Shown here: positions 1 through 25,160 of the stretch, one piece after another | Layout of the letters: the number at the start of each line of letters is the position of its first letter | How positions within the stretch are numbered: position 1 is the stretch's first letter | DNA from: a virus | Length of the DNA: 64,000 bases | Strand: one strand, 5' to 3' | Virus record (IMG/VR): IMGVR_UViG_3300022689_000116 | Coordinates: 16,710 to 80,709 of that record | The notes under the pieces: model-generated | The model's database searches: none | The model's input: only the letters and a program-made list of their open reading frames with translations | Told to the model about the DNA's origin: nothing | Translations under genes and position numbers: made by a program

Positions 1-3000
1 AATGGTTTAATGGAGTTGTTAAATTCACAGGTAGAGTTGGAACATCTTTTCTAGAACCTTTTGTAGATATTGGATATGGTATTCCTTCTATAATGGCTAC
101 TGGTAAATTTTCTGCTTTATATGACAATGATATAACTCAAGCTTTTGATGAGTTTAATAATCATCTTCAAAAACAATTTCCTAATTTTTACACTCATGCT
201 GAAACTGATTCTAAAGCACTTAGTTTAAAGAATCTTACATCTGCTAATTTTTGGGCTGATAAAGTTTTAGGTGGTGCTGCTTTTACAGTTGGTACATTAC
301 TTAATGCTTATGCTACTGCTGGTATTGGAACTGCCCTTAGAGGCGGAGCTGCTTTAAAAGCTTTTAGAGCCGGTTTTAAAGAAATGAGTTTAGCTGCTGA
401 AACAGAAAATGCTTTGAAAGCTATTAGTAGTAAAGCTGCTAGGGTTAGAACTGGAGATGCTATTCAAAATCTTGCCACAACTATTTTATCTGTTGCTGGA
501 GAATCTGGTGTTGAAGCTAGGGATTTAGGTAACACACTTAAAGCTCAAATGGCTGATTATGTTAAACAAGGTCTTATTAGTCAAGAAGAAGCTAGTCGTC
601 AAATTGAAAATGCTATGAATCTTGCTTTTGCAGCTAATGTTGCGATTGTTGGTACTTCTCAATTTATCCAATTTGGTAAACTTTATTCTAGAGGTTTTAA
701 ATCTGACAAACTTAATATATTCAAATTAGTTAAAGAAGGTGGTACATTTAAACCTACTTTACCCGAAACTGGTTTTGGTAAATTTGTAGCTAAATCAGCT
801 GGTGGTAGAGCTATACTCAAAGATATACTTACTGAGAGTAAAGAAGAAGGTTTACAATATCTTACTCAAAAAACTTTAGAATATAAGTATGGTGCTGAAG
901 TTTCTAAAGATATGACTGAATCTATTTCGCATGGTTTTAAAGAACTATTTGGAACTAAAGAAGGTATTGAAAATATGCTTATTGGTGCTATACTTGGTGG
1001 TGGTAGCCATTTAGGTAAAGCTGTAACTGGTAATGCAGAAAATCCTTATACTGCAAAAGTAAATAAAAGTAATGTTGTTGCTGATCTTGCTAATAGATAT
1101 TTTTCAGATGATAATAATAAACTTAGGGATTTAGTTTCTAATGTTGGAGTATATACTGCTGCCAATGAACGTAAAGAATACTATCTTTCTAAAGATGATA
1201 TTTTTAATTATAAAAATGAAGAATCGCAAGAGTTTGCTTCAATGGTTAAGAGTTTTGCTGATCTTGGTGCTATGGATGTTCTTTATGAACAAGTAGATGA
1301 AATAACTTCTATGAATGATGAAGAATATAATAAGATGTTTGGACAAGCCGAAGATGTTAAAGTTACTAAATCTAGAGAAGAACTATCTAGAGAGATTAAA
1401 GAAAAAGCTGAAGCTTTAGATCGTATAAATACTAATATAAATACTGCTTTTAACAATCATATACCAGCATATAAAAATAATTTATTTTATGTTTCAGCTA
1501 TGATTGATGATGGTCGTAGACGTGAAGCTATTCTCAAAAATGAATTATCAGAAGTTACTGGTATTCAATATGAAGATTTTGCTAAGTTGAGAACTCAGAA
1601 TTATAAAGATAGAGAACTAGCTAAAATTGAAAAGTCTAATAAGACTCCCGAAGAAAAACAAAAAGCTATTGATGAATTAGAAAGTCTTAATAAAGAAACT
1701 TTAGATGATGCTTATAGTAAAGCTATCAATAATTGGATAACTGATAATAATCCTGACCTTACCGATACTGAAATAAAAACTCTTACTACTAAGTTAGATG
1801 ATCTTACTAGATTACATGACAGACGACAAAACTTTATTGATACTTATAATTATATGGTATCAGAAAAAGGTATGGAAAATACTACTTTTGAAGGACTTTC
1901 AAAGAGTGCTGATAAAGATGCTCAAGAATCTATTAAAGAACTTCAAGCTTTACAAGAGAAGTTTCAGAAAGATATTAATGAAGGAAAACTCAATAAAAAA
2001 GAGATTGATAAAGCTATTATTGATGCTGAAGCTTTATATAAACTTAATGGTAGGGAATCTTTTAATAAATTAAAGAAAAATCTTACTAAATTAAGAGATA
2101 ACTATTATAATAAAAAGGGGAGTGACAATTCTTCCAATCCTACCGGGAAATCGAACAATACGAAAAATACGAAAGTTGAAGATACTTCTGACATTAATGA
2201 AACTAATGATGATACATCTGTAGCTGAACCTACTCAAGAAGAAGTTGATCTTGAACAAGTTATGGCTGATACCGAGTTAGAAGATATTAATGATGAAGTT
2301 ATAGAAGAAGGTGATGTTAAAAATGTTAGTGAATTAAGAAATTCTAATCTTAGTCAAGATCAAGAAGGATTAATATTAGATGCTTTAGATGAAGCTAATA
2401 AACTTGAAGATACAGAAGGTGTTGATGAAGTTATAAAATCTCCTAAAAAGGTTAGTGGAGATCAAGCTAAGAAAGCTTTTATTCAACTATTTGATAGGCT
2501 TAGTCCTAATAGTATTTTCTCATGGAATCTTTCTAATAATATGCTTTATGATTTTGGAGCTATTATGGAAAAGATAAATGATGTTGCTGTTAAGAATGGT
2601 AAAGAACTTTCTCCTCAGGCTTTTCAAGTACTTCAAGGTTTTTATTTTGCATATGTTTATTCAACAGCTAAAGATCAAGCTAAGTATAAGAATCCTATGT
2701 CTTATAAATATGCTGATTTAGAAAGTGCTGAAATAGCTCATCAAAATAGAGTTGCTGTAACTGTTCATGACGTTAATAAAAAATATACCAAAGATGTTGC
2801 TAAAGAAGATTTAGCAGATATGGAAACAAGACGTGTTGGTCGTGTTACAGAAAATGCTCATAGAACTGTTTCTGCTTTTAATAGAGCTTATGAAAAAGTA
2901 AAAGGTGAGAATAAGTTTAGAGATTTAAACAATACTATTGTAAATCTTGCAGCTTTAGATTTTAATAAAGTTAATGTAGGAAGTACAATTACTTTAAGAA

Positions 3001-6000
3001 TACCTAAAAAGGTTGAACATACTGTTGATGGTATCCCTAAAGGAAAAGCTGAAATACTACAACGTGCTTTAAATAAAGAAAATCTTACTAAAGATGAATT
3101 AAGACAACTTACTATAGAAATGGTAGATGAAGATGGTAATACTATAGGCTATCTTCATACAGAAGAATGGGTTGATAATAAGTTTAAAATGATTAAGGAA
3201 AATCATCCTGATCATTATAGTGATGAAAAGCTTCAAGAAGAAATGGATAATCTTCTTAGTATTAGAGCATCAGTTTATTTAAATGGTTCCGTAAAAACTA
3301 CTGTAACTGGTCGTTCTAATGGTATTTTATTAAACTGGAAAAGTGATAATACAGATGCTGTTACAATTTCTGCTAAAACTGCTTTTCAAGATGATAATCT
3401 TAAGTTCGGAATTGGTGATAGTGGTCGTGTTGAAATAGGTAATAATAGATCATCTAATGATATTGGTGAAGAACTTACTAATCCAGATAAGGTTGTAGAT
3501 GGTATTACTTATGCTGTTTTACCAGTTAATAAAAATACAACTACTAATCAAGTTAAATATATATCTGTACCATTACAATCTATTAAAATTGGTAACCTTA
3601 CGGATGAACAAAAACAAGCTAAGATTAAGAGTAGTATTGTAAATGCTATAAGGATATATATTACTAATGCTAATCCTGATGTAAAAGTAAAACTTAGTGT
3701 TGAAGATCAAAATGTAGTTAAAGATTTAAAGAAGGCTGGTTATGATATTACAACTTCTACTGGATTAAATAATTATTTACAGAACTTTATTTATACTTTT
3801 AAAACTGTAGGTTTTAATTCAGAAGATAAAGCTGGAGAACTTCTTAGAACATTTCTTAAAAGTAAGAGTACTACAGATGTTGCAATTAAAGCCGGAACTA
3901 AGTATATAGAGTTTGGTAGTGGAGATGCTAATGGAGCAGGAGAAAACTATGTTGCAAAAATAACTAAAAAGGGGGTTGAATACTATATAGGTGGAGAACG
4001 TGTGAATCTATCTAAACAAGATAGTATTGATGAAGAAACTTTCTTTAAAGCATTGGGTGGTATAACTAATAAAGCTTATATTGCTAGTGATAGTAAATTG
4101 ATAAATAAGAAAGGTAAATTTAACCTTAATTATATTGTTGATGGGAAAGTTGAAACTAAAGAATATAAACAATATAATGATTATCTTAAAGAAAATTTTC
4201 TTACTGATATTTATGGTCATACAACTAAAGAAGGTAAAACTTATTATTCTATTCATCCTATAATCGAGTTTGATGATAGTTTTATCAAAGGTAAACAAAA
4301 TACTAAACAAGTAGCAGATACTATAAGTGAAACAGAAGGTAAAGCAGAAAAAGAAGTTCGAGCTAAAGCTATGATTGAAAGAGCCATTACAGAAGTTATG
4401 AGTACTGGCGATATTATGGTTGGTGAAGAAACTTATACTCTCGAAGAAATATTACCTATTGGTAAACAAAGTACAGAAGGTGTTACTACTATATATAAAG
4501 ATAGTAAAGGAAAGAAAGTTAAAGTAACTGTTCCTATTACAGATATTGTAGATCAAAAGTATAGTAATAATGATATAGCTGATTTAATTTATGCTAGGGT
4601 ACGTACTGAAAGTAGCCCTGTAGAAAAGGAGATAACCAAAGAAACTCCTAGTGAACAAACAGGAGGTAAATTTAGTACTGATGAACTTGATGATATAGCT
4701 TCTCAATTTGGAGAAACTAATAATACTAATGATGAAGTTATTAATGCTCCTATGCGAGTTGTTGATGATGAAATATTTAATCTTGAAGTTGATTTAGGTA
4801 TTCGTCATAATCCAAATGATACTAAACCTGTTTATAAACGTTGGTTACAAAGACAATATAAAGCGGTTCTTAAAAAAGCTATTGAACTTAATTCTAAACT
4901 TAAAGATACCTCTTATAAGGTAAAGATTATTAAGATTGAGGGAGAGGTTGGAGATAACCGTGTTTATTTTGCTTTAAAAGCTGTTAGGAGAGTTGATGAA
5001 CAAGTCATTAATTCTTTAATTAAAGAAAAAGATCTTTCTACTAATACTCTTAGACAGAATATTGATGGTACTCTATATATTGCAGACCTTAATTTGGCTT
5101 TGCAAAATTCGACCATTGGCGACCTTAAAACAGCTATTATAAGACGTTTAAAAGAAGTTAGGGGTAACAGGTCATTAGAGAAACAGGTGCTTGAAACAAG
5201 CTTAAATGATGCTCTACAAGGCTATATTGACCTTAGAAATCAGTTCATAAGTGCAAAGAATCAAAGTACTGATAAAAACCGTATTGCACAGTATGATAAA
5301 ACTATTACCGGATTAACAGATATTATAAATAATTTTGATACTCTTGCTAAGTTTGCAATTAACGAACTTGCTTCTATTAATTTATTAAGTGTTTCTACTA
5401 AAATTAAATTAGAAGGTGGTAAGATTAAAACTCAAGAGGTTGAAAAAACTATTGATAATAATATTTTAAATGAGAATGATGAAGATGATCCTGATACTGG
5501 TGTAGAAGATATGGATTCAAATGGTGAAGATACTGCTCATTTTGAAACTGAACATAGTATTAAAATAGATCATAAGAAAACTATTTCTAAAGAACTTAAA
5601 CTATTTCTTAGTGATATTACTAATGATAAGATTGGCAGGACTATATTTGGAAAAGCTTTGCCTATGAGATTTGATACTGTTTATAATGATGTTTTAAATG
5701 CTTTATCAAATAAATTATTTACTGGTTATAAAACTTCTTTTGAAGGTATGTTATCTGAATTAGAAAAAGCTTCTGAACAAAAACCTTATTTAATGCAAGT
5801 TGTAGAAAAACTTAAAGAGGAAGCTAAGGATGATAAATCTAAAATTCCTGCACAATTTGAAAGACTTGTATTTAAACATAAATCTGAAATGTTTTATATA
5901 GGTTATTCTTATCGTAAGGATAATTCTAGTAACAATAATAAGAAATACAAAGATAATAAAAAGTATTATTACATTGTTCCAGCTAGAACTAATAATCTAT

Positions 6001-9000
6001 ATAATGAACGTGTTCTTGTAGATAGTTGGATTAGTAATTTTAGAATGGGTCAATATACAACCGTTGATGATAATTATGCTGATTCTATTTTAAGTGCTGA
6101 AAAGTTTGGTAAGTTAAAGAAAGATTATTATAAAATTGCCGATGTTATTGATACTCAAAATACATTATATAAAAATGCTGTTGAAAATGATCAATTTGAG
6201 AAAGCCGAAAGTCATATGCTTAAACTTAAACAAGCTATTAAAGATGCTTTTGGAGTAACTGGTATAATGTTATCTAATGAAACAGTTGATATAATTGCTA
6301 ACAATAAATTTAAGATTGGTAATAATACTGTTACAGTTGCTAATATGTTTAAAGTTGGTAATAAGAATGTTGCTCAAGCTGGTGGTAGATTTACTAGATT
6401 TGTTAAGAATTTAAAGTTTGACAAACCTCTTAGTACATTTAATATATTTTCATCTTCTTTTGTCGAAAGTATTGCAGCTTTAGAATCTAATTATAACAAT
6501 GTTGATTTTAGTAGTAATTACTTAGATCAAGAAGGTAAGTCTATTAGTTCTAATAGTAACTATAAATTCTTAGTTGAAAGAGTTATTACTTTGTTGGATA
6601 ATCCAGTTGTTGATAATAATACTAAAGAAACTATTTGGGAGAAACTTGATAATATTCCTTTCATTCGTAATTCAAGATGGTTTAATGATCTTAAAGAAGG
6701 TAAACTAAATAGAGATAATTTTCATGTAACTTACTCTGACGCTATTGTTCCTTTTAATAAAAGTGATAAAGCAGTTAAAATTAAAAATGCTCCTGAAGCA
6801 GATATTGAAAATTATAAACTAGGTCATTTCTTTAATATGAGAAGTGAACCTGAACAAGAACTTGTTAGGTTTATATATCCTACTCTTTCAGATGGTGGTA
6901 CTGTAATGGAAGTTACAGCTATGGCACAAGATTTTGAACTTGATGACAATAATCAGGTTTCTCAAAATACTATTAGTAGTATAGTAGATCAAATAGTAAT
7001 GCCGGAAGTTGATAGGATTAAAGATGTTAAAGATAAGACTATTGATATTGAAGGTTACAATGAAGGTTCTAAATTATTTTTATTCTTCCCCGAACTTAAT
7101 AAAAAATCTAATGGTTTATTTGATAATGATGGTAATTTAAAACTTGATGTTAAAGGTGAACTCCCATTGGAATCTGTTAAAACTATTAGAAAAGTTGTTA
7201 AAAAATATATTAATAATCTTGTTGATAATAAGATTAACGAATGGATTGATTTTGGTATTCTAAGAGAATCCCCTAAAGGTATTAGAAGTGAAATTCTAAA
7301 CTATGATAAAGATAATCTAATAACTGAAACCCAATTAGAAAACGTTAAAAGGTGGAATACAACTAATGGATTATATGTTGATAGCGAACAAGTTAAATAT
7401 AAAGATAGCACTGGTAAAGAAGTTGAAATAAGACCAGAAGATGTTATATTTGTATATGATACTGATGCTAGTGGAAGTTTACGAAATATAACTTCTGCGG
7501 TAGCTAAAAAACGCTATGGTGCTAAAGATGGTTATGTTAATAGAGTTGTAGGTAATTCATTTGGTATTGTTACACTTGCAGATGAAAATGCCGATATTAA
7601 AGATATGTATCTTTCGAGGAATGAAGTTCGCGAAGCTTTTCAAAAGGTTGTAGATGCTGCCAATAAGAATCCTGATAAATATTTTGTATTACCTACTTTT
7701 AGAAATTCATTTAAACAGTTTGGTTATAATACTTTTGAATATGCTCAAATATTGAGTACTTTAGCTTTACCTGAAAATATAGTTATAAATGAAAAGTTTG
7801 CTAAAACTATAAGTAAAGCTAGAACTAGTTTATTAGAAACTACTCCCGAAGAACTTGAAAGTAGAAAAGAGAAGTCTAAAGCATATATTTATAAAGATCA
7901 TATCTTACATTTTGTTGATAAGAATTATTCTGATAGAATGGAGATTATGCTCGAAGGTACTAATAAGAATAGAATTAAGCAAATGGCTCTCGATTATGTA
8001 CTTAATTATATGGTAGCTAATACTAATATTCATCAACTTATAATTGGCGATCCTGCTTTATACTTTAAAAAGGCTAATGAAAATTTATATTCTCCAGAGA
8101 ATGCAATAGCTACATTTGATAATGTTATAAAACGTCTTGCAGCTGATCGCGCTCCTGGTGAACACATGGCTAATAGTTTTGCTGTAGATGAAGTTTATAA
8201 ACAAGTATTTGTATTAGATAGAAAGAAAAAACTTGCTTCACTAGCTAATACTTATCTTAAATCATTAGGTTTTGATTATAGTGAAATTAATGGTACGGAT
8301 GCTCAAGAAATGACTACTTTTAAAGAGGATATGTATGTTAAATATAGAAATGGTATTATAAGTAAAGCTTTATATAATAGACTATTTAATAAAAATGGTA
8401 TTGTTACTAAAGAGTTAAATCGTAAAGATTCTAATGGCAAACCAAATCCTAACCATTATTATATGGGAGCTATTTATGGAACTCTTAGTAAAGAAGATTC
8501 TGATCTTTATAAAGAATTTAAAGAAAATGTTAATCAACCAGTTAAACCTGTTTATGTTAATAATCTTGCTCAAACTATAGATGGACACAATGTTGATAGA
8601 CGTATGTATATTAAATCTTCATCGTTTGCTTTAACACCTTCTCTGACTATGAATAGAGAACTTGATAAGGTACGTATTTATATGGAATCTAATGGCATTG
8701 ATCGTCTTGCATTTGGTTCTGCTGTTAAAGTTGGTAATTTTGCAACAAATCCACGAATATTTAATAATGATGGTACTATAACTATTCCTGATGATTTTGA
8801 TGACTATACTATGGAACTTCCTAGAAGTGGTTTTAGAATCCAGCAAGATAATCCATTTGATGTTAATAAAAATAAGGTTAAATTTGGAGTTCAAGAATCA
8901 GCCCTTCTATTTAATAATCTTTTACATATTGATAAATTTAAAGATTTAAGCACACGATTTAATGATACTTATTCTAAACTTTATCAATTAGAATTAGGTA

Positions 9001-12000
9001 AGCTTTATACTCAACTTGGTATATTAGAAGAAGGTCAAAAACTTAGTGATCTAAATGAAACTATATTAGATACTACATTTATAAATGATAAAATTAATCT
9101 TGAGAAACTTTCAGCACTTGTTAAAGAAGAAGCTTCTGCTAGAGGTTATAGTCGTAATGATATTGTTGGACTAGGACTTAAAGATGGTGAGTTTTTTATT
9201 CGTCTAGGTTTTCATACTAGAGCTATTAATTTAGAATCTTTATTTAATTCTATAATTAATAATAGAGTTATTTCTCATAAGATTACAGGTAAGAGTTTTA
9301 TACTTGGTACAGAAGAAGGTTTTAAACATCTTGAAGATAAAAAATTAAGAGATAATATTGTCTATACTTCTGATATAGTTGATGATCTTAAACCTATGGG
9401 TTTTACAGATAAAGATGGAAACTATATTGATATAAAAGATGTTGATAAGGATAGTAAGTTTCAACCTGCTCAGATATTTATACCTTCTATACTAAGAGAT
9501 AACAACGGTAAAAAGATAAATCTATTTGAAAAGGATATAGAAACTAAATCATACAAATATTTAATGATTGTTAAACGCAATGGTCAAAATAAACTTGTGC
9601 TTAGAAAGAATATGGTTGATTCTGATCTTTTTAAAGCTTTTGGTTTCCGTATTCCAACACAAGGTCATAATAGTATGACTTCAATAGAAATAGCAGGTTT
9701 TCTTCCAGAAGATGCAGGTGATCTAATCATTGCTCCTAGAGATTTTGTTAAACAAATGGGTTCTGACTTTGATGTTGATAAACTTTACAGTTATATGTAT
9801 AATATGGAAGTTAATGAAGATGGAAAGATTAAGAAAGTTAAATCTGGAAATGATAGTAAAAAGGCTTTACAAAATCAATTATTAGATATTCATTTTGGAG
9901 TTTTAAATGATCCTAATGTAGATGTTCAAAAACAAATATTTGAACCTCTTGAATTTGGTATTCTAAAAATGGAACAAGGTGAATTTATAAGTTCTGATAA
10001 AGATGTTGAGAAAGCTGTTAATAATATGTATAATGGTAAGTTAGCAGACTATATTGATGATCTTAATAGTACAAGGGATAAAATGTTTACTGGAATAGAT
10101 GATATGTTCCAAAGACAAAGCTTTCTTGAAGGTCGTGATGGTGGTGTTGGTATTGGTAAGTTTAGTTTAGATAGTACATTCAATGCTTTATTACAACAAA
10201 CTAAAGTTGAAATTGGTAAAGAAACAGTTAAAGGATTTAAACCAGATTCTGTTACACTTGGTAATAAAGTTTCCAATCACATTTACGATGCTAAATCTAA
10301 TAAAATTGGAGATAAAGAATTTAATAAATCTCAAGTTATTTCTTGGTATCAATCAGCTTCTGTTGATAATGCTAAAGAAAAATTATTATATAAACTTAAT
10401 ATCAATGATGTAACTTATGGTGCTATAACTTATCTAAATCAATTAGGATTTAATGAAGAAATTATATGGTTAATCAATCAACCTATTATTAGAGATTATG
10501 TAAGAGAATTACAAATTGTAAATAGTTCTATAAATTCTGTAGATGATTATATAAATAGAGCTACTTTAAAAGTTTATGAAAAGTATAATCGTGATCGAGT
10601 TTTTAGTAAAGAAGATGGAACTGACAAACTTACAAAAACTTATAATAATCCTGGTAGATATGGTATTGGCGAATTACATAAACTTCTTAAACAAAATAAA
10701 GAAGGTATAAAAGACAATACTGCTGATGAATTTAACAGAAGTCAATTAGGTATATTTAAGATATTTAAAGACTTTAGTAAAAAAGGAGATGCTATTGCTG
10801 ATTTACAATCTGTATTAAATAGTAACAGTAAAGGTATGGGTAAAGATGTAGCTACAGCTTATATCAAAACTAAAGCTATTTTAGAAATAGATGATAATGT
10901 TAGTTTTTACAATCCTTCACAACTTATTGGAACTAAGATAAATGAAATTAAATATCGTAAGTTAGAACCTGAACAACAAAACCAATATTTCAAAATAGAA
11001 GATAATGTTTATATTAAACCTACCACTATTGCAGGTATGGCTTCTATATTTGGTACTATTGCAGGTACTAAATTATGGTCTAGTATCTTCCCTTATAACA
11101 GTCCTATAATAGGTCGTGAAATAGATAAGATACATGAAATTTCTAATTTTAGGTCTAAGCATATTTCTACAGAAGCTAAAGATATTAAACATTTATGGAC
11201 TGAGTTAAAGAAATTTATCAATAGTAAGACTATTTCTAACATAAGTACTGAAAGTCCAAATGAGATTCGTAATCGTCTTATGTTAGATAGATTTGATGGG
11301 GATAATAATCATACTCATTATTCATTAGCTTCTATTATAAAAGCTGGAAAAGAAAATGGTACATTGACAAGTAATGATCTTGTCAATACTTTAATACTTG
11401 AACCTAAAAAGAATAGGAATAGTTTTGCACTTGTTAAGTATAATACTAATGGTAAGAATATAGATGAATCTAATCTTATAAATGGATTTATGCAACTTAT
11501 TCATACTAATAAAAAGATTGGAGATTTCAATGGGGTTGAATATACAACTCGTAATCTTGCTGCTGATCTTTTACTCTATAGTCTTACTGCTGGTGGAGTT
11601 CAACAATTTGGAAGGTTTGCTAAATATGTTCCTATGGAATATCTTGATAAGGTTGGTTATACAGAAGCTATCAATAGTTTAGATTTTACTAACCCTTATA
11701 TAGCTGGTTATACAGAAATGAATGAAGATCATAATAATATATCTGAATTTGTAACTCAATATTTTCAGCATTTTCCAACTAAGACTCAAAAAGTAAATCT
11801 TAGTAATTCATTTATGTTTTATGATAACTCTTTAGATTTAGATGATCTTAAACAAATTCAATTAGATAAACTCAACATTGAAGATTCTGTATTAGTAGAA
11901 GGAGTTCCTGTTAGTAAGGAAATGGAACAAGCAGAAAATAGACGTCTTGCTTTTATTAGAAGAATATATAGAACTTATGATGAAAATGATGATTCTAATA

Positions 12001-13214
12001 ATGAATTAAAAGAGTTCTTCCATGTTCAACATCCTGATACTAATAAAGTTTATCTATTTAGACTTATTAATAAAAAGGATGGTACTTATGCTAAAATTCC
12101 AACTTTAGGTCAGCAAGGTATTTCTGAATATAATTATGATTCTATAAATGACAACAATTATCAGAATAGTGTACTTAACAATAATAATGATAAACTTATT
12201 ACATTCCGTGATCCTACATTACATGATAAGAAAGCTAGTTATTTAAGTCAATCTGATCTTACCGATAACCGTTCCTTAATAGACAATTATAACATAAATA
12301 GTTTAAATGCTAAAACAATATTAAGAAATATCATTAAGCACAAACAAGATAGAATTAATAGGAATAAGCTTCAAACTAATGATATGAATAATCAATTAGT
12401 ATTTAATTCTTTCATAGCTGAAAAGATATTAGATCGTATTGATAACTTCGATATTAAAATTGTTATAGATAATACAATTAAAGCTTCAGGACAAATTACA
12501 AGTACTGATAATTATGCTAATAATATAACTATTAAATTAAACTTACAAGATATAAATTCTTATAAGAATAATCAAGTTGTTGATACTGTTAGTATTGAAG
12601 ATGCTAGTATTAATCCTGAACTTTATACTTTTGAACGTGTTTTCTTACATGAAGGACTTCATGCTATTACGCTTAATTATCTAAAGACAACTGAGGAGAG
12701 CAATCTTTCTATTCTACAGGGAAATTGGGCAAAGGCTAGAACTTATGCTCAAAACAATGGTGTCAATATTAAAGAACTTGATAGACTTGTTAATACACCC
12801 GGAGCTTCTCTTCCCGCTGATATGTATAAATATTATGGACTTGCTCAAACTAAGGATGGTAAGCCTAGACTAGATGAGTTTATAACAGGTGTATTTACTG
12901 ATGCTGAATTTAGGAATTTTTTAAGTGGTATTGATAGTGATACTAAATCAGTATTAGATAAGATACTTGAGTTTATTGTTAATGCTCTAAACGAGATAGG
13001 TTTTAATATTAAAGAAAATACTTTAGCTGAAAGTTCATTGCTTGAAATTATTAATGTTATTGAGGAGTCAGATTTCCCGGTAAAGAAGAAAAATGTGAAT
13101 GTCGAGAATGATAGTATTAATAGTGTTCTTAAAGCATTTGGTGAAGAAAATTTAGATAATATTATAAATGATCTTATTAAAAATAATCAAGTTAGTATTG
13201 CTTGTAAACTTTAA
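1..13214 (+). CDS. Giant virion RNA polymerase polyprotein (crAss-like), 5'-truncated
   Basis: The frame is open from position 3 (WFNGVVKF...), so the true start is upstream of the window. It carries double-psi RNAP motifs RIPTQG (~9648) and GSDFDVDK (DFDVD at 9765-9779), plus QPVKP, IKSS, SAVKVG and VDNAK. The N-terminus has Gly/Ala-rich hydrophobic helices and the C-terminus has a zincin motif HEGLH (12648-12662)...DEF. Confidence 0.93.
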   Translation, partial: WFNGVVKFTGRVGTSFLEPFVDIGYGIPSIMATGKFSALYDNDITQAFDEFNNHLQKQFPNFYTHAETDSKALSLKNLTSANFWADKVLGGAAFTVGTLLNAYATAGIGTALRGGAALKAFRAGFKEMSLAAETENALKAISSKAARVRTGDAIQNLATTILSVAGESGVEARDLGNTLKAQMADYVKQGLISQEEASRQIENAMNLAFAANVAIVGTSQFIQFGKLYSRGFKSDKLNIFKLVKEGGTFKPTLPETGFGKFVAKSAGGRAILKDILTESKEEGLQYLTQKTLEYKYGAEVSKDMTESISHGFKELFGTKEGIENMLIGAILGGGSHLGKAVTGNAENPYTAKVNKSNVVADLANRYFSDDNNKLRDLVSNVGVYTAANERKEYYLSKDDIFNYKNEESQEFASMVKSFADLGAMDVLYEQVDEITSMNDEEYNKMFGQAEDVKVTKSREELSREIKEKAEALDRINTNINTAFNNHIPAYKNNLFYVSAMIDDGRRREAILKNELSEVTGIQYEDFAKLRTQNYKDRELAKIEKSNKTPEEKQKAIDELESLNKETLDDAYSKAINNWITDNNPDLTDTEIKTLTTKLDDLTRLHDRRQNFIDTYNYMVSEKGMENTTFEGLSKSADKDAQESIKELQALQEKFQKDINEGKLNKKEIDKAIIDAEALYKLNGRESFNKLKKNLTKLRDNYYNKKGSDNSSNPTGKSNNTKNTKVEDTSDINETNDDTSVAEPTQEEVDLEQVMADTELEDINDEVIEEGDVKNVSELRNSNLSQDQEGLILDALDEANKLEDTEGVDEVIKSPKKVSGDQAKKAFIQLFDRLSPNSIFSWNLSNNMLYDFGAIMEKINDVAVKNGKELSPQAFQVLQGFYFAYVYSTAKDQAKYKNPMSYKYADLESAEIAHQNRVAVTVHDVNKKYTKDVAKEDLADMETRRVGRVTENAHRTVSAFNRAYEKVKGENKFRDLNNTIVNLAALDFNKVNVGSTITLRIPKKVEHTVDGIPKGKAEILQRALNKENLTKDELRQLTIEMVDEDGNTIGYLHTEEWVDNKFKMIKENHPDHYSDEKLQEEMDNLLSIRASVYLNGSVKTTVTGRSNGILLNWKSDNTDAVTISAKTAFQDDNLKFGIGDSGRVEIGNNRSSNDIGEELTNPDKVVDGITYAVLPVNKNTTTNQVKYISVPLQSIKIGNLTDEQKQAKIKSSIVNAIRIYITNANPDVKVKLSVEDQNVVKDLKKAGYDITTSTGLNNYLQNFIYTFKTVGFNSEDKAGELLRTFLKSKSTTDVAIKAGTKYIEFGSGDANGAGENYVAKITKKGVEYYIGGERVNLSKQDSIDEETFFKALGGITNKAYIASDSKLINKKGKFNLNYIVDGKVETKEYKQYNDYLKENFLTDIYGHTTKEGKTYYSIHPIIEFDDSFIKGKQNTKQVADTISETEGKAEKEVRAKAMIERAITEVMSTGDIMVGEETYTLEEILPIGKQSTEGVTTIYKDSKGKKVKVTVPITDIVDQKYSNNDIADLIYARVRTESSPVEKEITKETPSEQTGGKFSTDELDDIASQFGETNNTNDEVINAPMRVVDDEIFNLEVDLGIRHNPNDTKPVYKRWLQRQYKAVLKKAIELNSKLKDTSYKVKIIKIEGEVGDNRVYFALKAVRRVDEQVINSLIKEKDLSTNTLRQNIDGTLYIADLNLALQNSTIGDLKTAIIRRLKEVRGNRSLEKQVLETSLNDALQGYIDLRNQFISAKNQSTDKNRIAQYDKTITGLTDIINNFDTLAKFAINELASINLLSVSTKIKLEGGKIKTQEVEKTIDNNILNENDEDDPDTGVEDMDSNGEDTAHFETEHSIKIDHKKTISKELKLFLSDITNDKIGRTIFGKALPMRFDTVYNDVLNALSNKLFTGYKTSFEGMLSELEKASEQKPYLMQVVEKLKEEAKDDKSKIPAQFERLVFKHKSEMFYIGYSYRKDNSSNNNKKYKDNKKYYYIVPARTNNLYNERVLVDSWISNFRMGQYTTVDDNYADSILSAEKFGKLKKDYYKIADVIDTQNTLYKNAVENDQFEKAESHMLKLKQAIKDAFGVTGIMLSNETVDIIANNKFKIGNNTVTVANMFKVGNKNVAQAGGRFTRFVKNLKFDKPLSTFNIFSSSFVESIAALESNYNNVDFSSNYLDQEGKSISSNSNYKFLVERVITLLDNPVVDNNTKETIWEKLDNIPFIRNSRWFNDLKEGKLNRDNFHVTYSDAIVPFNKSDKAVKIKNAPEADIENYKLGHFFNMRSEPEQELVRFIYPTLSDGGTVMEVTAMAQDFELDDNNQVSQNTISSIVDQIVMPEVDRIKDVKDKTIDIEGYNEGSKLFLFFPELNKKSNGLFDNDGNLKLDVKGELPLESVKTIRKVVKKYINNLVDNKINEWIDFGILRESPKGIRSEILNYDKDNLITETQLENVKRWNTTNGLYVDSEQVKYKDSTGKEVEIRPEDVIFVYDTDASGSLRNITSAVAKKRYGAKDGYVNRVVGNSFGIVTLADENADIKDMYLSRNEVREAFQKVVDAANKNPDKYFVLPTFRNSFKQFGYNTFEYAQILSTLALPENIVINEKFAKTISKARTSLLETTPEELESRKEKSKAYIYKDHILHFVDKNYSDRMEIMLEGTNKNRIKQMALDYVLNYMVANTNIHQLIIGDPALYFKKANENLYSPENAIATFDNVIKRLAADRAPGEHMANSFAVDEVYKQVFVLDRKKKLASLANTYLKSLGFDYSEINGTDAQEMTTFKEDMYVKYRNGIISKALYNRLFNKNGIVTKELNRKDSNGKPNPNHYYMGAIYGTLSKEDSDLYKEFKENVNQPVKPVYVNNLAQTIDGHNVDRRMYIKSSSFALTPSLTMNRELDKVRIYMESNGIDRLAFGSAVKVGNFATNPRIFNNDGTITIPDDFDDYTMELPRSGFRIQQDNPFDVNKNKVKFGVQESALLFNNLLHIDKFKDLSTRFNDTYSKLYQLELGKLYTQLGILEEGQKLSDLNETILDTTFINDKINLEKLSALVKEEASARGYSRNDIVGLGLKDGEFFIRLGFHTRAINLESLFNSIINNRVISHKITGKSFILGTEEGFKHLEDKKLRDNIVYTSDIVDDLKPMGFTDKDGNYIDIKDVDKDSKFQPAQIFIPSILRDNNGKKINLFEKDIETKSYKYLMIVKRNGQNKLVLRKNMVDSDLFKAFGFRIPTQGHNSMTSIEIAGFLPEDAGDLIIAPRDFVKQMGSDFDVDKLYSYMYNMEVNEDGKIKKVKSGNDSKKALQNQLLDIHFGVLNDPNVDVQKQIFEPLEFGILKMEQGEFISSDKDVEKAVNNMYNGKLADYIDDLNSTRDKMFTGIDDMFQRQSFLEGRDGGVGIGKFSLDSTFNALLQQTKVEIGKETVKGFKPDSVTLGNKVSNHIYDAKSNKIGDKEFNKSQVISWYQSASVDNAKEKLLYKLNINDVTYGAITYLNQLGFNEEIIWLINQPIIRDYVRELQIVNSSINSVDDYINRATLKVYEKYNRDRVFSKEDGTDKLTKTYNNPGRYGIGELHKLLKQNKEGIKDNTADEFNRSQLGIFKIFKDFSKKGDAIADLQSVLNSNSKGMGKDVATAYIKTKAILEIDDNVSFYNPSQLIGTKINEIKYRKLEPEQQNQYFKIEDNVYIKPTTIAGMASIFGTIAGTKLWSSIFPYNSPIIGREIDKIHEISNFRSKHISTEAKDIKHLWTELKKFINSKTISNISTESPNEIRNRLMLDRFDGDNNHTHYSLASIIKAGKENGTLTSNDLVNTLILEPKKNRNSFALVKYNTNGKNIDESNLINGFMQLIHTNKKIGDFNGVEYTTRNLAADLLLYSLTAGGVQQFGRFAKYVPMEYLDKVGYTEAINSLDFTNPYIAGYTEMNEDHNNISEFVTQYFQHFPTKTQKVNLSNSFMFYDNSLDLDDLKQIQLDKLNIEDSVLVEGVPVSKEMEQAENRRLAFIRRIYRTYDENDDSNNELKEFFHVQHPDTNKVYLFRLINKKDGTYAKIPTLGQQGISEYNYDSINDNNYQNSVLNNNNDKLITFRDPTLHDKKASYLSQSDLTDNRSLIDNYNINSLNAKTILRNIIKHKQDRINRNKLQTNDMNNQLVFNSFIAEKILDRIDNFDIKIVIDNTIKASGQITSTDNYANNITIKLNLQDINSYKNNQVVDTVSIEDASINPELYTFERVFLHEGLHAITLNYLKTTEESNLSILQGNWAKARTYAQNNGVNIKELDRLVNTPGASLPADMYKYYGLAQTKDGKPRLDEFITGVFTDAEFRNFLSGIDSDTKSVLDKILEFIVNALNEIGFNIKENTLAESSLLEIINVIEESDFPVKKKNVNVENDSINSVLKAFGEENLDNIINDLIKNNQVSIACKL

Positions 13215-13226
13215 ATAATTAAAGAT

Positions 13227-16200
13227 ATGTCAATTTGTACAAACGGTATAAGCCGTATTCGAGTAAAAGCCGCAAATGGTAAAGATAGTATATTATTCAA
13301 AAATATATTAGATCATTATGAAGGCAATAGAGATGATGCTATAAGACTTTATGCTTATGCTAATTCTCAAGAGTTTTTTGATAACTATGGTAATTATAAA
13401 TCTAATCCTGAATCATTCAGTAATTTAGATATTAATTCTGAACCTAAAATAACAGATGTTTTAAATACTGTTTCTGAAACTGATTATAGACTTGCTCCTA
13501 AAATTGGTAAAGATTTTTCTTTTGCTTTTGATAAAGATAAGTTTACACAGAATACAGAACTTGATGATGAAACTATCAAGAATAATAGAAAACGATCTAG
13601 ACGTATTATTGTTAAAAAGAGAGCCATTTTAGATGATTTATATAAACATTTAACCCCTCTTAAATTTGTTGATAGTAACGATGCAAGACGTGAAGAATAT
13701 AAAATTAATATGCGTATTAGTGCATTAAATGGTGAGATTAATCGTATTGAAGAAGAAATGGATGCTGATGCTCTGGTTAAAATGGCTAATGCTGACCTTA
13801 AACGTGTAAGCTATATTCTTAGTAATAGAAATATTAACATGAGTGATTTCTTTTATGCAAAAAATACACTTAATGTTTGGTATGATGTTATTAATACTTT
13901 CTTTCAAGAATCTAAGACTAGCGATAATACTTTTTATGGTGAAGCAAAAGATGATAGTCTTAGGTTTAAATCACTTAGTGATGTTGAGGCAGAAGCTAAA
14001 CGTTTAATCAATGCTGCAAATGCTAAAGAAGTATTTCTTATTAATCAATATTTGAAATCTGAAACAGGTAGAGATGTTGATATTAAGAAAGTATTTAGAG
14101 AACAACAAGATTATAGTGCTGTTCATGCTAGTACCATGAGTATTGATAGAACTGATAATATATTATTTCAACAAGTTGCTAATACTAATTATAAAATAAT
14201 TGGTAGAGTTAAAGAACAATACCAAACTTTTGAAAAAGAAATTGATGTTCTTATTGATAAGGCTGAAAGAGAATTAAAAAACATTGCTACTTCAAGTGAT
14301 AAATATGATATATTTAGAGAGAAATATAAAGATGGTAGTGCAACTGGCAATATGATTAGACAATTTAATCCTGAATATGATGATGAAAATGCTATCCAAT
14401 TTAGTAAAGCGATTGAGTCTAATAGTGAAACTTCTTTTGCTACTTACTATAAATGGTTTAACGATAACAACTACATACTTGATTTTCGTATTTTATTTCA
14501 AGGTGAGAGAGATAATGATGGACTTCTATTTTGGAATGAAACACAACATACTAAAGCTGAAAAAGATAAACTTATTAATGATCTTAAAGAATTAGTTGGA
14601 GAAAAAGAAACTCAAAGACTATTGGAATTAAGTGAGAAATATCTTGATGATTATGCTTCTGCTAGAGAGGTTGCTATTGAAGAAATAAATTCTAGAGCAG
14701 ATCGTACTACTGATCAAAAAGATGAAGATTTTCGTAGATGGGAAGTAACGTATTCTCCATTCTATTATTCTAATGCAATAGTTAATCAAAAAATATATAC
14801 TATTGGTAATAGTATTGCAAATCATAAAGGTCGTCATTCAGTAATGGCTGTTCCTCGTAAAACCAATCGTGAAACTGGACAAGATACAGGATGGTTTAAT
14901 GAAGATTTTGCTAAGATTAAAAATAGTCCTGCCGTATATGAGTTTTATTTAAAGTTTATTAAGACTAATCATATGCTTAATAATTTATTACCTTATACAG
15001 TATCTAATCACCTTAGAGATAATACTATTCCAACTCTTAGAAAGACTATGTATGATCATATGACAGAAGATGGTATGAAAGGTGTTATGAAAGATGTGTA
15101 TCAAGGAGTTATTAATAGTCTTACTACAAATGATAGTAACGAACTTGTTTATGCTGATATTGACCCTTATACTGGTGAGATTGAAAAAAATCTTACTATT
15201 TCTTTTGTTAAACAAAATCTTAAAGAAATTAATAAAAGATATACTACAAGACTTATACAGTTTGAATCTACAAATAATGCTAAAGCAAGTATTGAAGATA
15301 AACGTAAGATTAAGAAAGAAGTAATGGATTCTATGGCTAAAGAAAAGTCTTTTGATTTAGGTAAAATTCTTAAAGCTTATTACATGAGTGTAATGTTTTA
15401 TACAGCTAAGGCTAGAATAGAAGATTTAGTTCGTGTTAGTGATAGTGTTTTCCAAAGAGAAGCAGAAGTTCTAAGAACAGCTTCTGGAAAGAATAAACGT
15501 CAAGGTAGAATTGGAGAACTTTTAAGAAAGTCCCCTGATCGTAGTTTTAAGAATATTAAAGATCAATGGGATTATTGGGTTGAATACTTCTATGGACATC
15601 GTAGTGATGATGAACATGTATTTGCTACTAAAGTTCTTACCAAAGAAGAGAAAGAAGAAAAGACTAAGATACTTGAACTTATGGCTACAATTAAAAAAGA
15701 TTTTGAGAATGGAGATATTGAAGCTGAGGAATATAATTTAAAACTTACTAAATTAGAAACTATTCTTGAAGAACTTGGTCGTAATTATTCTAGTGCTAAA
15801 ATAGGTAGGACAATACTTAAATATAATCAGCTTAAATCTATGGGTTGGAATGCTTTTAGTGGTGTTACCAACATGACTCAAGGTTATATTAATAACTTCA
15901 TGGAAGCTAATGATGGTAGATTATTTACTAAAAAGAATTTAGGTGTAGCTTATAAAAAGGTTTTCAATTCAGTGCTTAAAAACTATTCTTTTAATACTAT
16001 TGAAAGTAATGAAGCTAAGAAGATTAGATCACTTATGGATAGGATGGATGCTATGAGTGAAACTTCTAATGAACTTTATCAACGTAGTTTTAAGAATAGA
16101 AAGACTGGTGGAATTAATTGGATGAATCCTTATAATATACAGAACAGAAGTGAATATTTTAATCAAGCTCCTTTGCTTGTTGCAACTATGTTAAGTAAAA

Positions 16201-17153
16201 ATAATATGGTTAAAGATTTAAAAGGTAATGATGTTCCTATTTATGAAGCTTTTGATGAAGAAGGTAAATGGAAGACTGATATATTTGGTGCTGAAGATCC
16301 TAATCTAATTGATAATTTAAAACTTAAAATAGCTGCTACAATATCTAAAGTTCATGGTAACTATAATAGTGAAATGCCAATTAGAGCAAACAAAAAAGTT
16401 ATTACTTCTGCTATGAAACAATTTAGAACTTGGATGTTTGAAGGTGTTGCTGATAGATTTCAACGTGAACAATTTAGTGATGCTTTAAAGATTCAATTAA
16501 AAGGTCGTTATCGTAGTGGTGTTATGGGTTTTGTACGGGCAAGTGCTAAGAGTAAGACTAATGAACAAGGAGAACGTATTGATGAAAAAGGTAACATTAT
16601 AAAAGATTATGAAAGAGGTATTGATCTGAAAGAAATTTTAGATAATCAAGTATTTAGTATAAAACAACTTTTGAGAAAGTTAGTATTTATGGATACACAG
16701 TATGATGAAAGATTTAGTGAAGTTGATGCTGCAAATCTTCGTAAAAATCTTAGTGAATTAGTTATACTTGGACAAGTTTCAGGTCTTATACTTTTACTTA
16801 GTATGTTAGGTGGAGATGATGATGATGATAAACTTAAATTTTATGTTAAGAATTATACTTTAAATGCTTTGTTTAGAGGTCAAGCTGATATTACCTTATA
16901 TCTTAGTCCCGATTCTTTAGAACAAGTTTCTCAAAGACCTATTCCTGTTATGAGCCTTATTACTGATATGCACAAACTTATTAATGCAAGTATTTCTTTA
17001 GCTCTGGGTAATGATGAAATAACTAGAGGTATTTATACAGGAGAAAGTAAGTTTAAAAGAGCATTATTTAGAAATCTTCCATTAGTTAGTAAGGTTCAAA
17101 GTAATAAAAGTGCTGCTATACAAGTTTATAACAATATTCAAGGAGCTAAATAA
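13227..17153 (+). CDS. Large virion cargo/ejection protein
   Basis: 1308 aa helical protein directly after the RNAP gene, as in crAss-like phages. It has HGNY...QFRTW and KGRYRS motifs and a hydrophobic segment followed by GGDDDDD near the C-terminus. Confidence 0.75.
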   Translation: MSICTNGISRIRVKAANGKDSILFKNILDHYEGNRDDAIRLYAYANSQEFFDNYGNYKSNPESFSNLDINSEPKITDVLNTVSETDYRLAPKIGKDFSFAFDKDKFTQNTELDDETIKNNRKRSRRIIVKKRAILDDLYKHLTPLKFVDSNDARREEYKINMRISALNGEINRIEEEMDADALVKMANADLKRVSYILSNRNINMSDFFYAKNTLNVWYDVINTFFQESKTSDNTFYGEAKDDSLRFKSLSDVEAEAKRLINAANAKEVFLINQYLKSETGRDVDIKKVFREQQDYSAVHASTMSIDRTDNILFQQVANTNYKIIGRVKEQYQTFEKEIDVLIDKAERELKNIATSSDKYDIFREKYKDGSATGNMIRQFNPEYDDENAIQFSKAIESNSETSFATYYKWFNDNNYILDFRILFQGERDNDGLLFWNETQHTKAEKDKLINDLKELVGEKETQRLLELSEKYLDDYASAREVAIEEINSRADRTTDQKDEDFRRWEVTYSPFYYSNAIVNQKIYTIGNSIANHKGRHSVMAVPRKTNRETGQDTGWFNEDFAKIKNSPAVYEFYLKFIKTNHMLNNLLPYTVSNHLRDNTIPTLRKTMYDHMTEDGMKGVMKDVYQGVINSLTTNDSNELVYADIDPYTGEIEKNLTISFVKQNLKEINKRYTTRLIQFESTNNAKASIEDKRKIKKEVMDSMAKEKSFDLGKILKAYYMSVMFYTAKARIEDLVRVSDSVFQREAEVLRTASGKNKRQGRIGELLRKSPDRSFKNIKDQWDYWVEYFYGHRSDDEHVFATKVLTKEEKEEKTKILELMATIKKDFENGDIEAEEYNLKLTKLETILEELGRNYSSAKIGRTILKYNQLKSMGWNAFSGVTNMTQGYINNFMEANDGRLFTKKNLGVAYKKVFNSVLKNYSFNTIESNEAKKIRSLMDRMDAMSETSNELYQRSFKNRKTGGINWMNPYNIQNRSEYFNQAPLLVATMLSKNNMVKDLKGNDVPIYEAFDEEGKWKTDIFGAEDPNLIDNLKLKIAATISKVHGNYNSEMPIRANKKVITSAMKQFRTWMFEGVADRFQREQFSDALKIQLKGRYRSGVMGFVRASAKSKTNEQGERIDEKGNIIKDYERGIDLKEILDNQVFSIKQLLRKLVFMDTQYDERFSEVDAANLRKNLSELVILGQVSGLILLLSMLGGDDDDDKLKFYVKNYTLNALFRGQADITLYLSPDSLEQVSQRPIPVMSLITDMHKLINASISLALGNDEITRGIYTGESKFKRALFRNLPLVSKVQSNKSAAIQVYNNIQGAK

Positions 17154-17394
17154 ACTATTCATAGTAAAGATAGTGGTAATGATAGTCATACAACATATGA
17201 GGTCGATTTTAGGCGTTCTGACTAACTATCTTGTTTCATTGGTATTACGTGTTCACTTTATAATTTGGATTGAAATTTGCCTATTCTCTGTCAACCTGGA
17301 GGCAAATTTTAATTCATTCTGAAATACACAAATAGGGGTAAATTATTAATATCTTTATCATTAACTTTACTTCTAACTTTATTTGTAAATGCAC

Positions 17395-17424
17395 AAAAAA
17401 AAGGGGTTAAACACCCCTCTTTTT
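17395..17424. terminator. Bidirectional intrinsic terminator between convergent gene blocks
   Basis: A8-GGGG-ttaaaca-CCCC-tcttttt, located at the +/- strand junction. Confidence 0.75.
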
Positions 17425-17427
17425 ATA

Positions 17428-17709
17428 TCAAAGATTTTCATCAATTAGAATATCTCCTACTTTATCCATAGCTTCCAAGAAAGCATTATAGCTTTCTTTT
17501 TTCTTAAATATTAAATTTATAACTGGTTTTTTGTTATGAACATCTTTAAGTTTAAGTTTCGTACCTACTTCTCGTTTATCAACAGCATATAATCTAATAG
17601 CAGGATACTTATTTCCTTTATTATCAACTAAAACTTGTGTTACAATTCCAACATCACCATCTCCAAATTCAATATCTTTTACATTCTCAATAAGATCAAT
17701 ACCAAACAT
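17428..17709 (-). CDS. Hypothetical protein
   Basis: 93 aa ORF in an operon with dUTPase. Confidence 0.7.
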   Translation of the reverse strand: MFGIDLIENVKDIEFGDGDVGIVTQVLVDNKGNKYPAIRLYAVDKREVGTKLKLKDVHNKKPVINLIFKKKESYNAFLEAMDKVGDILIDENL

Positions 17710-17714
17710 AACTA

Positions 17715-18257
17715 TTACTTGTTACCTGTATGACCAAATCCACCTTCACCTCTATCTGTAGAAGTTAAATGATCAAGAGAACTAACTTCTTCAAACTCAA
17801 AAGGAATAACCTTTTCAATTTCTAATTGAGCAATTCTGTCATTATCTCTAATTAAATATTCTTTACTAGAAGTATTAATTAATATAACACCTACATCTCC
17901 ACGATAATCTTCATCAATTAGACCTGGAGTATTAAGTACTGTAATACCATGTTTCAAAGCAAGTCCAGAACGAGGTCTTACATTTGCTTTATAACCTTTA
18001 GGTATTTGCATATGTAAACCTGTAGGAATTAAAACTCTACCACGAGGTTCTATAGAAAGAATTAATTCATCAGTTTCTTCATCAACATGCAATGCAGCAC
18101 CACACATGAATTTATTTTCACATAAATTCAAATTAGCATTGAGATCAACAGCAGCCGCTCCATCACTTCCTTTTACAGGAATTATAGCAAATTCATTACT
18201 TTTATAAACAAGAACTTTAAGTTCAGATTTATTAGTTAACATATCATTTTCATTCAT
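17715..18257 (-). CDS. dut: Trimeric dUTPase
   Basis: Motifs AAAVDL, RPRSGLA, PGLIDEDYRG, RIAQL and RGEGGFGHTG. Confidence 0.97.
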   Translation of the reverse strand: MNENDMLTNKSELKVLVYKSNEFAIIPVKGSDGAAAVDLNANLNLCENKFMCGAALHVDEETDELILSIEPRGRVLIPTGLHMQIPKGYKANVRPRSGLALKHGITVLNTPGLIDEDYRGDVGVILINTSSKEYLIRDNDRIAQLEIEKVIPFEFEEVSSLDHLTSTDRGEGGFGHTGNK

Positions 18258-18268
18258 ATTATTAAGAT

Positions 18269-18442
18269 TTAAAATTTATTATCAAAACTACCACGATTAT
18301 AAGCATCAATAACCCCTGCCATTATAGCAAGGGTTCTGATTTCTTTTTGAGAAGTATGAGTATAAGCTAATTCCATCTTATCAGAAAGTTCTATAACTTT
18401 AGTAGCTATTTCACGAGCTTCTTCTAATTTCATAGCACTCAT
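18269..18442 (-). CDS. Small hypothetical protein (57 aa, not in ORF track)
   Basis: MSAMKLEEAREIATKVIELSDKM...DNKF. Its ATG overlaps the upstream TGA and it fills the gap exactly. Confidence 0.65.
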   Translation of the reverse strand: MSAMKLEEAREIATKVIELSDKMELAYTHTSQKEIRTLAIMAGVIDAYNRGSFDNKF

Positions 18443-19491: not shown

Positions 19492-19506
19492 AACTTTATT
19501 TATTAT

Positions 19507-20752: not shown

Positions 20753-20757
20753 GTTTA

Positions 20758-21039
20758 CTAAAATTGAGGATAATTAATTTTATCATATTCATATACGACT
20801 TTACCAGATGATTTAAAATCATTATTTTTAAGTCGTTTAGCAGGATATACACCATTAGAAATAAGTACATCAGTAATAAGTCCCGATGTATCAATATATC
20901 TAAGTACAGGATCTTTAATTTGATCCTTTATAGAATCACGAAGTTCGTTCCAATGCAGAACACTCTGTGCAGTACTCATAATAGCTTTAGCTTCTTCGAG
21001 CTGTTCAATAACAGTATCATTTTTAATAACATTTTTCAT
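20758..21039 (-). CDS. Hypothetical protein
   Basis: 93 aa, co-oriented and tightly packed. Confidence 0.7.
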   Translation of the reverse strand: MKNVIKNDTVIEQLEEAKAIMSTAQSVLHWNELRDSIKDQIKDPVLRYIDTSGLITDVLISNGVYPAKRLKNNDFKSSGKVVYEYDKINYPQF

Positions 21040-21047
21040 ATCTTTGA

Positions 21048-21461: not shown

Positions 21462-21473
21462 TTGTTTATTGTT

Positions 21474-22195: not shown

Positions 22196-22198
22196 AAT

Positions 22199-23984: not shown

Positions 23985-23995
23985 AAGTTTAATTA

Positions 23996-25144: not shown

Positions 25145-25160
25145 GTAATAAATAAGATAT

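Follow-up and report, generated by a model that had tools for sequence, protein, structure and literature searches.

Facing terminal cysteines at gene breaks of the virion RNA polymerase module in a divergent crAss-like phage and its relatives

Described systems and the cysteine pair of the locus

The closest described relatives of the locus considered here are the virion RNA polymerase (RNAP) modules of the phages phi14:2 (gp67-gp66-gp65; gp66 solved as PDB 6VR4) and crAss001 (gp47-gp50-gp49). Their proteins belong to the same family as two large proteins encoded by adjacent genes in the window, i.e., the whole stretch of 64,000 nucleotides of IMG/VR record IMGVR_UViG_3300022689_000116 (source contig of 80.7 kilobases) that was analysed. 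The genome is that of a divergent crAss-like phage, with genes for terminase, portal, major head protein and DNA polymerase also located in the window. The two adjacent genes code for an RNAP polyprotein of 4496 amino acids (aa) and a protein of 1308 aa, each with a single cysteine, and positions 13203-13238 are the exact span between the two Cys codons, from that of the upstream open reading frame (ORF) to that of the downstream ORF. Judged by comparison with relatives and with a distant precedent, these residues probably form a head-to-tail interchain disulfide in the virion, which would tie the two tails that face each other (C-terminal in the RNAP polyprotein, N-terminal in the 1308-aa protein) and thereby replace the peptide bond of fused forms.

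Virion packing and ejection are known for cultured relatives, the window from its genes alone. In case of crAss001, mass spectrometry detected gp47, gp50 and gp49 in virions, and the three proteins are regarded as cargo (PMC10172136). The modules of phi14:2 and crAss001 share with the window the DFDxD motif, the zincin-like domain, the gp65-family fold and facing ends whose Cys is the only one, or nearly so, of the respective protein; in contrast to both phages, the window fuses the first two pieces into the protein of 4496 aa, with no Cys at that junction. The preprint on phi14:2 gp66 (10.1101/2020.03.07.982082) makes no mention of cysteine and assumes that fused polyproteins are cleaved, while the account of crAss001 virions reports disulfides between tail hub and ring proteins and leaves the cargo cysteines unmentioned (PMC10172136). 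Neither of the two describes any linkage among the proteins of the module. A literature search yielded no paper describing a terminal-Cys rule for crassviruses.

A solved precedent is provided by the cyanopodophage A4 (Anabaena phage A-4L), for which cryo-electron microscopy (cryo-EM) revealed that Cys1715 of gp27 is disulfide-bonded to Cys5 of gp26 (PMC12002296, PNAS 2025); in the packed particle, the C-terminal helix of gp27 lies in a cleft of gp26 (PMC12002296; gp26 = PDB 9k3a_A). Inspection of the A-4L genome showed that the two genes are adjacent, that Cys1715 is the sole Cys of the 1717-aa gp27, and that residue 5 is the sole Cys of gp26. The positions relative to the facing chain ends are thus -3 and +5 in A-4L compared to -3 and +4 in the window. 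A4 differs in being a small T7-like podovirus whose gp27 is devoid of a DFDxD motif. The A4 paper presents the bond as a structural detail; it derives no general rule, does not connect the bond to gene fission and leaves RNAP unmentioned (PMC12002296). Comparison of the window's proteins with A4 gp26 and gp27 gave an hhalign probability of 0.1 % and nothing significant with hmmsearch; 9k3a was absent among the 50 Foldseek PDB matches listed, and no PDB match was obtained at E 0.001. Since the A4 proteins are not detectably homologous, the precedent is an analogy.

The depletion of cysteine has its own counterpart in the ejection proteins of Schitoviridae (N4 gp50 virion RNAP; DEV gp71-gp73), which contain 0.00075 % Cys as against 0.865 %, a suppression explained by passage through the periplasm (PMC11445570). 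Similar to these phages, the window combines a giant virion RNAP with strong Cys suppression, the four-gene block described below containing 0.028 % Cys vs. 0.856 % in the remaining proteome. The N4-type enzyme, a T7-like single-subunit polymerase, consists of one Cys-free chain, whereas the polymerase of the window is of the DFDxD type, its module is cut, and one Cys is kept per cut end.

The junction comprises the following features:

3..13214, + strand: upstream giant ORF, representing the C-terminal 4403 codons of the 4496-aa virion RNAP polyprotein (ORF list)
13203..13205, + strand: TGT, sole Cys codon of the upstream protein, residue 4494/4496 and third from the end (...VSIACKL), followed by AAA CTT TAA
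13212..13226, + strand: TAA stop codon and 12-base spacer between both genes
13227..17153, + strand: downstream gene for the 1308-aa protein, family of phi14:2 gp65 and crAss001 gp49 ('RNA polymerase-associated' virion protein)
13236..13238, + strand: TGT, sole Cys codon of the downstream protein, residue 4 (MSIC...), preceded by ATG (13227), TCA and ATT

The giant gene in full occupies positions 16433-29923 of the contig and starts 277 bases ahead of the window; counted from the first ATG within the window, the ORF has 4373 codons. An original prediction, made from the letters of the window, had noted a single Cys third from the C-terminus of the giant protein and a single Cys at position 4 of the 1308-aa protein. 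Both observations are correct, the former also for the full-length gene product of 4496 aa.

The N-terminus of the giant protein encoded ahead of the window (MANKNTIQ...) contains no Cys, and neither do the products of the two preceding ORFs (583 and 838 aa), while the ORF before them (1492 aa) has eleven. Accordingly, this four-gene block contains 2 Cys in 7225 aa vs. ~62 expected (Poisson P ~3e-24), with the expectation taken from the 58 other ORFs of the genome (0.856 % Cys). Base composition was rejected as the cause of depletion, because TGT and TGC are common in the other frames (278 in frame +2 of the giant ORF alone). The scarcity of Cys in the cargo is thus confirmed, and avoidance of Cys in ejected proteins is an accepted idea for N4-like phages (PMC11445570). 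The accompanying statement that other proteins (PolB, TerL and MCP) contain Cys normally needs one adjustment, since four small ORFs of the window (203-212 aa) and one of 450 aa are also Cys-free. The missing N-terminus and the upstream cargo gene had been proposed for a check of the same pattern, and no Cys is present in either; in the absence of Cys from the RNAP N-terminus and from both upstream cargo-like proteins, the proposed chain of all cargo proteins reduces to a link between only two proteins here. In relatives, no chain exceeds three or four pieces of this RNAP module.

Cysteine pairs at gene breaks and the fused forms

Breaks in the RNAP module were surveyed in 40 IMG/VR loci and eight reference genomes and were counted only if visible from both sides. 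The terminal cysteines, whose conservation in orthologues was decisive for the original prediction, are indeed conserved: a Cys pair is present at 31/31 breaks, with one partner 1-9 residues away from the end of the upstream protein and the other among residues 3-6 of the downstream one, and at none of the fused junctions. The downstream protein is gp65-like in 24 cases and the RNAP in 7, and the paired residues are usually the sole Cys of the respective proteins. For comparison, ordinary ORFs of the same loci contain a Cys within residues 2-6 in 6.4 % and within the last nine residues in 8.2 % of cases.

The surveyed breaks include those of crAss001, phi14:2, DAC15, cr4_1, crAss002, the cyanophage Lbo-JY46 and phi17:2, the latter from outside Crassvirales. 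Single junctions read ...MLNCKGK followed by MIC in cr4_1, and ...EVNC followed by MSNC in Lbo-JY46. Chains of three pieces are formed by gp67 (...NTIC), gp66 (MAC...QECK) and gp65 (MSC) in phi14:2 (1, 2 and 1 Cys in g067, g066 and g065, respectively), by gp47 (...LRCNS), gp50 (MSKRC...ICGANTLYEL) and gp49 (MAKKC) in crAss001, with the same layout in DAC15, and by gp39 (...GFMC), gp38 (MASC...LKCN) and gp36 (MSC) in phi17:2. A simple counting rule emerges, according to which the first piece carries a Cys at its C-terminus only, a middle piece at both ends, and the last piece at its N-terminus only; gp47, gp50 and gp49 of crAss001 obey it, save for one extra internal Cys in gp50.

The break of crAss002 was counted among the 31 after the start had been moved to an internal Met giving MSC. 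With the annotated start of gp33 (MVLDYS...; L045, MN917146, 9270-9375) the first Cys is at residue 35; translation from the internal Met (residue 33) would begin MSCTPSNPK, in the manner usual for post-break proteins. Thus, the annotated start of gp33 is probably 32 codons too early.

In crAss001 and DAC15, gp47 is encoded on the strand opposite to gp50-gp49, with the ends still matching, and the pair is also retained with small genes between the partners (L008, L035, L039 and phi17:2). Since it holds across opposite strands and inserted genes, the pairing rule, as judged from gene arrangement, acts at the protein level. In L008 (8737-9153), L035 (7155-7376) and L039 (2791-3213), a small conserved ORF ending ..LYKLKNL[HRK] stands between the large pieces. 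Inter-gene spacing in relatives ranges from -23 to +106 bases and amounts to -7 to +6 in 18/22 listed loci, the extremes being loci with a small ORF adjoining the downstream gene; the relative frame and the stop codon at the junction differ among relatives as well. Read-through or frameshifting at the junction was rejected on account of this variation of spacing, frame and stop codon together with the partners on opposite strands.

A terminal Cys was also observed in a gp45-like cargo protein ending ..RRRR[LH]C, with the Cys as last residue, in L027 (18320-20413, - strand), L028 (19170-21263, - strand) and L033 (19170-21263, - strand). It has no obvious partner in these loci and is lacking in gp45 of crAss001.

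Many relatives possess the same modules in the same order in one ORF, and at the junction of such fused homologues no Cys was found. In eight fused loci, the ORFs of 2830-4455 aa are entirely Cys-free. With HMMER, 7144 relatives of the 1308-aa protein were retrieved out of 1.8 billion representatives, and the best 150 of them served for composition counts. Among these, 44/65 fused representatives of at least 3000 aa are Cys-free (0.016 % Cys overall). In the stand-alone group (62 representatives, 1100-1500 aa), a Cys occupies one of the residues 2-8 in 57 cases. An MxxC-like start is frequent in fusions of 3300-4600 aa, which look like the RNAP fused to the gp65-like part downstream of a break. 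The internal Cys of fused proteins are few and scattered, three of them residing in an intein-like insert. This insert (residues ~4273-4500 of the fused 6187-aa protein P0073) begins Cys-Leu-Gly-Tyr-Gly-Thr, contains a LAGLIDADG-type motif (LAGYLSGDG) and holds the only three Cys of a polyprotein that is otherwise Cys-free.

On a tree of the conserved C-terminal domain from 127 representatives, the state changes between fused and split at least 13 times, with 11 changes forced by well-supported branches. The 1308-aa protein of the window and P0004 are nested within a group of fused forms. The position of the break is likewise not constant, being located after the zincin-like domain in the window and before the same domain in phi14:2 and cr4_1.

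Domain composition of the two proteins

Further features of the two genes are as follows:

9765..9779, + strand: DFDVD, corresponding to the DFDxD catalytic motif of crAss-like virion RNAPs (motif scan)
12276..13013, + strand: zincin-like domain at the C-terminal end of the upstream protein, with HEGLH at 12648-12662
13227..13475, + strand: N-terminal module of the downstream protein, ~80 aa after the Cys (...NGKDSILFKNIL...R..A..YAYA.S.EF...)
14547..17135, + strand: conserved C-terminal family domain (profile match, residues 441-1303)
16749..16826, + strand: hydrophobic helix LSELVILGQVSGLILLLSMLGG, then DDDDD, near the C-terminus of the 1308-aa protein (hydropathy scan)

The DFDxD motif, defined in the preprint of Drobysheva et al. 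(10.1101/2020.03.07.982082), has a position in the giant ORF comparable to that in phi14:2 g066, crAss001 gp50 and cr4_1 gp26 (motif scan). The giant ORF matches PHROG 16227 (E 1e-51 and 2e-29), annotated as giant 'virion structural protein', and represents the fused counterpart of crAss001 gp47 + gp50 or phi14:2 gp67 + gp66. A phmmer comparison of its 4403 aa with PDB sequences, including the solved gp66, gave nothing at E 0.01; in the absence of a direct match to the gp66 structure, the kinship rests on the DFDxD motif, the PHROG profile and the neighbouring protein. Searching for homologues with the C-terminal 454 aa retrieved no protein except the giant ORF itself.

A profile of the zincin-like domain, built from the giant ORF and seven related upstream proteins (350 C-terminal aa each), matches residues 156-373 of phi14:2 g065 (E 1e-14) and 266-480 of cr4_1 gp27 (E 2e-12). 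The zincin-like HExxH domain was assigned to gp65 by Drobysheva et al.; here it is carried by the upstream protein. The C-terminal Cys forms an invariant column across the eight aligned upstream C-termini. The AlphaFold2 model of the last 350 aa was poor (predicted local distance difference test, pLDDT, of 49; 8 sequences) and was not used for fold or disorder.

The AlphaFold2 model of the 1308-aa protein is good over residues 1-1200 (pLDDT 80). With this model, a Foldseek search of BFVD retrieved the 'RNA-polymerase subunit' of cr111_1 (1e-22) and phi14:2 gp65 (S0A048; 7e-19), and in addition cr4_1 gp27 and structural proteins of phi17:2; cr4_1 gp27 was also matched by tblastn and phmmer. Against the PDB, Foldseek produced only generic helical-repeat matches with E above 0.04, and the family profile matched no PDB sequence. 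Pfam revealed nothing in the giant ORF and the 1308-aa protein save one sub-threshold match, and a search for related loci with the 1308-aa protein alone returned nothing. Two alignments, one of them that of the eight upstream C-termini, offered no segment of sufficient conservation for such a search.

Homologues of the 1308-aa protein (23-47 % identity) begin MAIC, MNC, MAC or MSC. Among 59 diverse stand-alone homologues, only the columns M1, C4, R1077 and G1093 are invariant. Residues 1-10, including Cys4, are of low confidence or disordered in the model, and the tails on both sides of the break look free. The ~80-aa module that follows is present in many downstream pieces with the consensus ...NGKxSxLFxDLL...R..A..YA..S.EF..GDW and is succeeded by a low-confidence linker (residues 83-113). 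Its profile matches solely the N-termini of post-break proteins, i.e., gp65-like proteins and also the phi14:2 RNAP gp66, with no significant match within fused ORFs or within the upstream giant protein. Two other N-terminal types recur (CxYxYxGxxY[ST]xxEL and CPNKNxxEWKxLV). The three module types after the Cys are swapped within one family, and cr4_1 gp27 has two of them in tandem.

The hydrophobic helix and the DDDDD stretch are kept in the family consensus, and the helix at 16749-16826 may be a membrane-inserting segment. ARAGORN detected no tRNA genes over the whole window (1-64000), and blastn with the junction sequence found no match in the phage collection. Between the genes for the portal (52330-54633) and the major head protein (56107-57579), the Cys-free 450-aa ORF (54727-56079, + strand) matches no PHROG; a role as scaffold or as another internal protein is possible.

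The probable link between the terminal cysteines

The tail-to-head disulfide put forward in the original prediction is supported by the conserved pairing and by A4, where the same signature corresponds to a disulfide resolved by cryo-EM, the support being comparative in both cases. For N4-like phages, the suppression of Cys in ejected proteins has been described before. Since both Cys are only a few residues away from the chain ends, the linked product would be nearly linear. It would comprise ~5,800 residues, equivalent to the single polyprotein of fused relatives, and could still pass a narrow tail channel as an unfolded or partly unfolded thread. During assembly in the reducing cytoplasm, the ~80-aa N-terminal module may dock the upstream tail, with the disulfide closing after release into an oxidising medium. 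The bond would then hold the pieces at a 1:1 ratio and in order through ejection, and would be reduced in the cytoplasm of the next host. Elsewhere in these proteins Cys would be purged, because stray thiols in dense, ejected and periplasm-crossing proteins risk wrong cross-links.

A broader generalization is about evenly balanced between being right and being wrong: each fission of the RNAP polyprotein in crass-like and neighbouring phages would have been repaired by near-terminal Cys on both sides and by a docking module, taken from a small portable set, on the downstream piece, such that a disulfide-joined thread of 5,000-7,000 residues is ejected as a unit and reduced in the host cytoplasm.

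Several points weigh against the disulfide and its generalization. The support for the bond is comparative, and the precedent of A4 is an analogy, its proteins having no detectable homology. The anoxic, reducing habitat of gut crassviruses makes spontaneous oxidation less certain. Extra internal Cys occur in crAss001 gp50 (1), DAC15 gp63 (3), cr4_1 gp26 (6) and crAss002 gp33 (6), and 5/62 stand-alone representatives have no N-terminal Cys, one of them being a contig-edge fragment. Finally, the split rows of the tree were chosen for having an N-terminal Cys; therefore, the tree counts fissions and fusions rather than independent gains of Cys.

Compared to the disulfide, other explanations are less compatible, or incompatible, with the counting rule and the fused forms. 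The terminal Cys may meet but share a metal ion or another non-disulfide link, which is considered unlikely. The pairing rule indeed shows that the residues belong together, not how they are joined; moreover, the zincin-like HExxH domain ~190 aa before the C-terminal Cys provides a metal-binding setting, and thiol-metal bridges would form even in the reducing gut. However, one Cys per chain supplies only two ligands, and the alignments display no conserved His, Asp or Cys adjoining. The pair is found also at the gp67/gp66-type break, far from the zincin-like domain, and the only solved case with the same signature, A4, is a disulfide.

An equally doubtful possibility is that each Cys acts on its own, being attached to another virion part such as portal, scaffold or capsid interior, acylated, or capping the zinc of the zincin-like domain in the manner of the 'cysteine switch' of metalloproteases. 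Such roles leave the counting rule and the Cys-free fused junctions unexplained; at the outer ends of a chain (first N-terminus, last C-terminus) the Cys is never present. They would be compatible with the presence of the zincin-like domain, with the accessibility of the terminal tails (AlphaFold2 model of the 1308-aa protein), and with the gp45-like cargo of some gut relatives that ends in a Cys without obvious partner.

Rejoining of the pieces into one polypeptide, marked by the Cys, by intein-like trans-splicing, enzymatic ligation or recoding across the stop codon, is very improbable. It would account for the evolutionary interchangeability of fused and split forms, both native chemical ligation and intein chemistry use an N-terminal Cys as nucleophile, and one fused relative carries an intein-like insert. 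With 0-8 residues after the upstream and 2-5 before the downstream Cys, however, the flanks are too short for split-intein halves, and a Pfam search found no Hint or intein domain. In the window, a split intein was rejected since the stretches beyond the Cys are two (upstream) and three (downstream) residues long, while the halves need ~100 and 35 aa. The variable Cys positions are unfit for precise chemistry, and spacing, frame and stop codon vary too; recoding is excluded because the partners in crAss001 and DAC15 are encoded on opposite strands. Furthermore, proteomics after reduction has already been reported to show separate gene-sized proteins for phi14:2 and crAss001 virions.

That the terminal Cys are functionless and owe their presence to chance or shared ancestry, related sequences sharing residues and nothing more, can practically be dismissed, since the proteins share 20-30 % identity and C4 is nevertheless invariant (one of four such columns in 59 homologues), the pair recurs at different break points after at least 11 state changes, and only ~6-8 % would be expected per end even in Cys-normal proteins and far less in Cys-poor ones.

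If the broader generalization holds true, the joined thread would be a redox-switched 'pseudo-polyprotein' that some of the most abundant human gut phages have in common. Structural papers on crassviruses leave open how several megadaltons of cargo are packed and how a working RNAP is delivered via a narrow tail (PMC10172136; PMC13434306). A covalent, reversible link would explain equal numbers of separately encoded pieces in the particle, their fixed order of exit, and the evolutionary interchangeability of fused and split layouts.

The pairing rule may also aid annotation, in that it flags wrong starts (crAss002 gp33) and distinguishes genuine breaks from frameshift errors of metagenomic assembly. 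In L007 (IMGVR_UViG_3300033143_000932, 4664-4701), two large ORFs, neither with a terminal Cys, overlap by 37 bases within a conserved RNAP stretch (..FFFVPELN..), an overlap that looks like a frameshift or assembly error rather than a true gene break.

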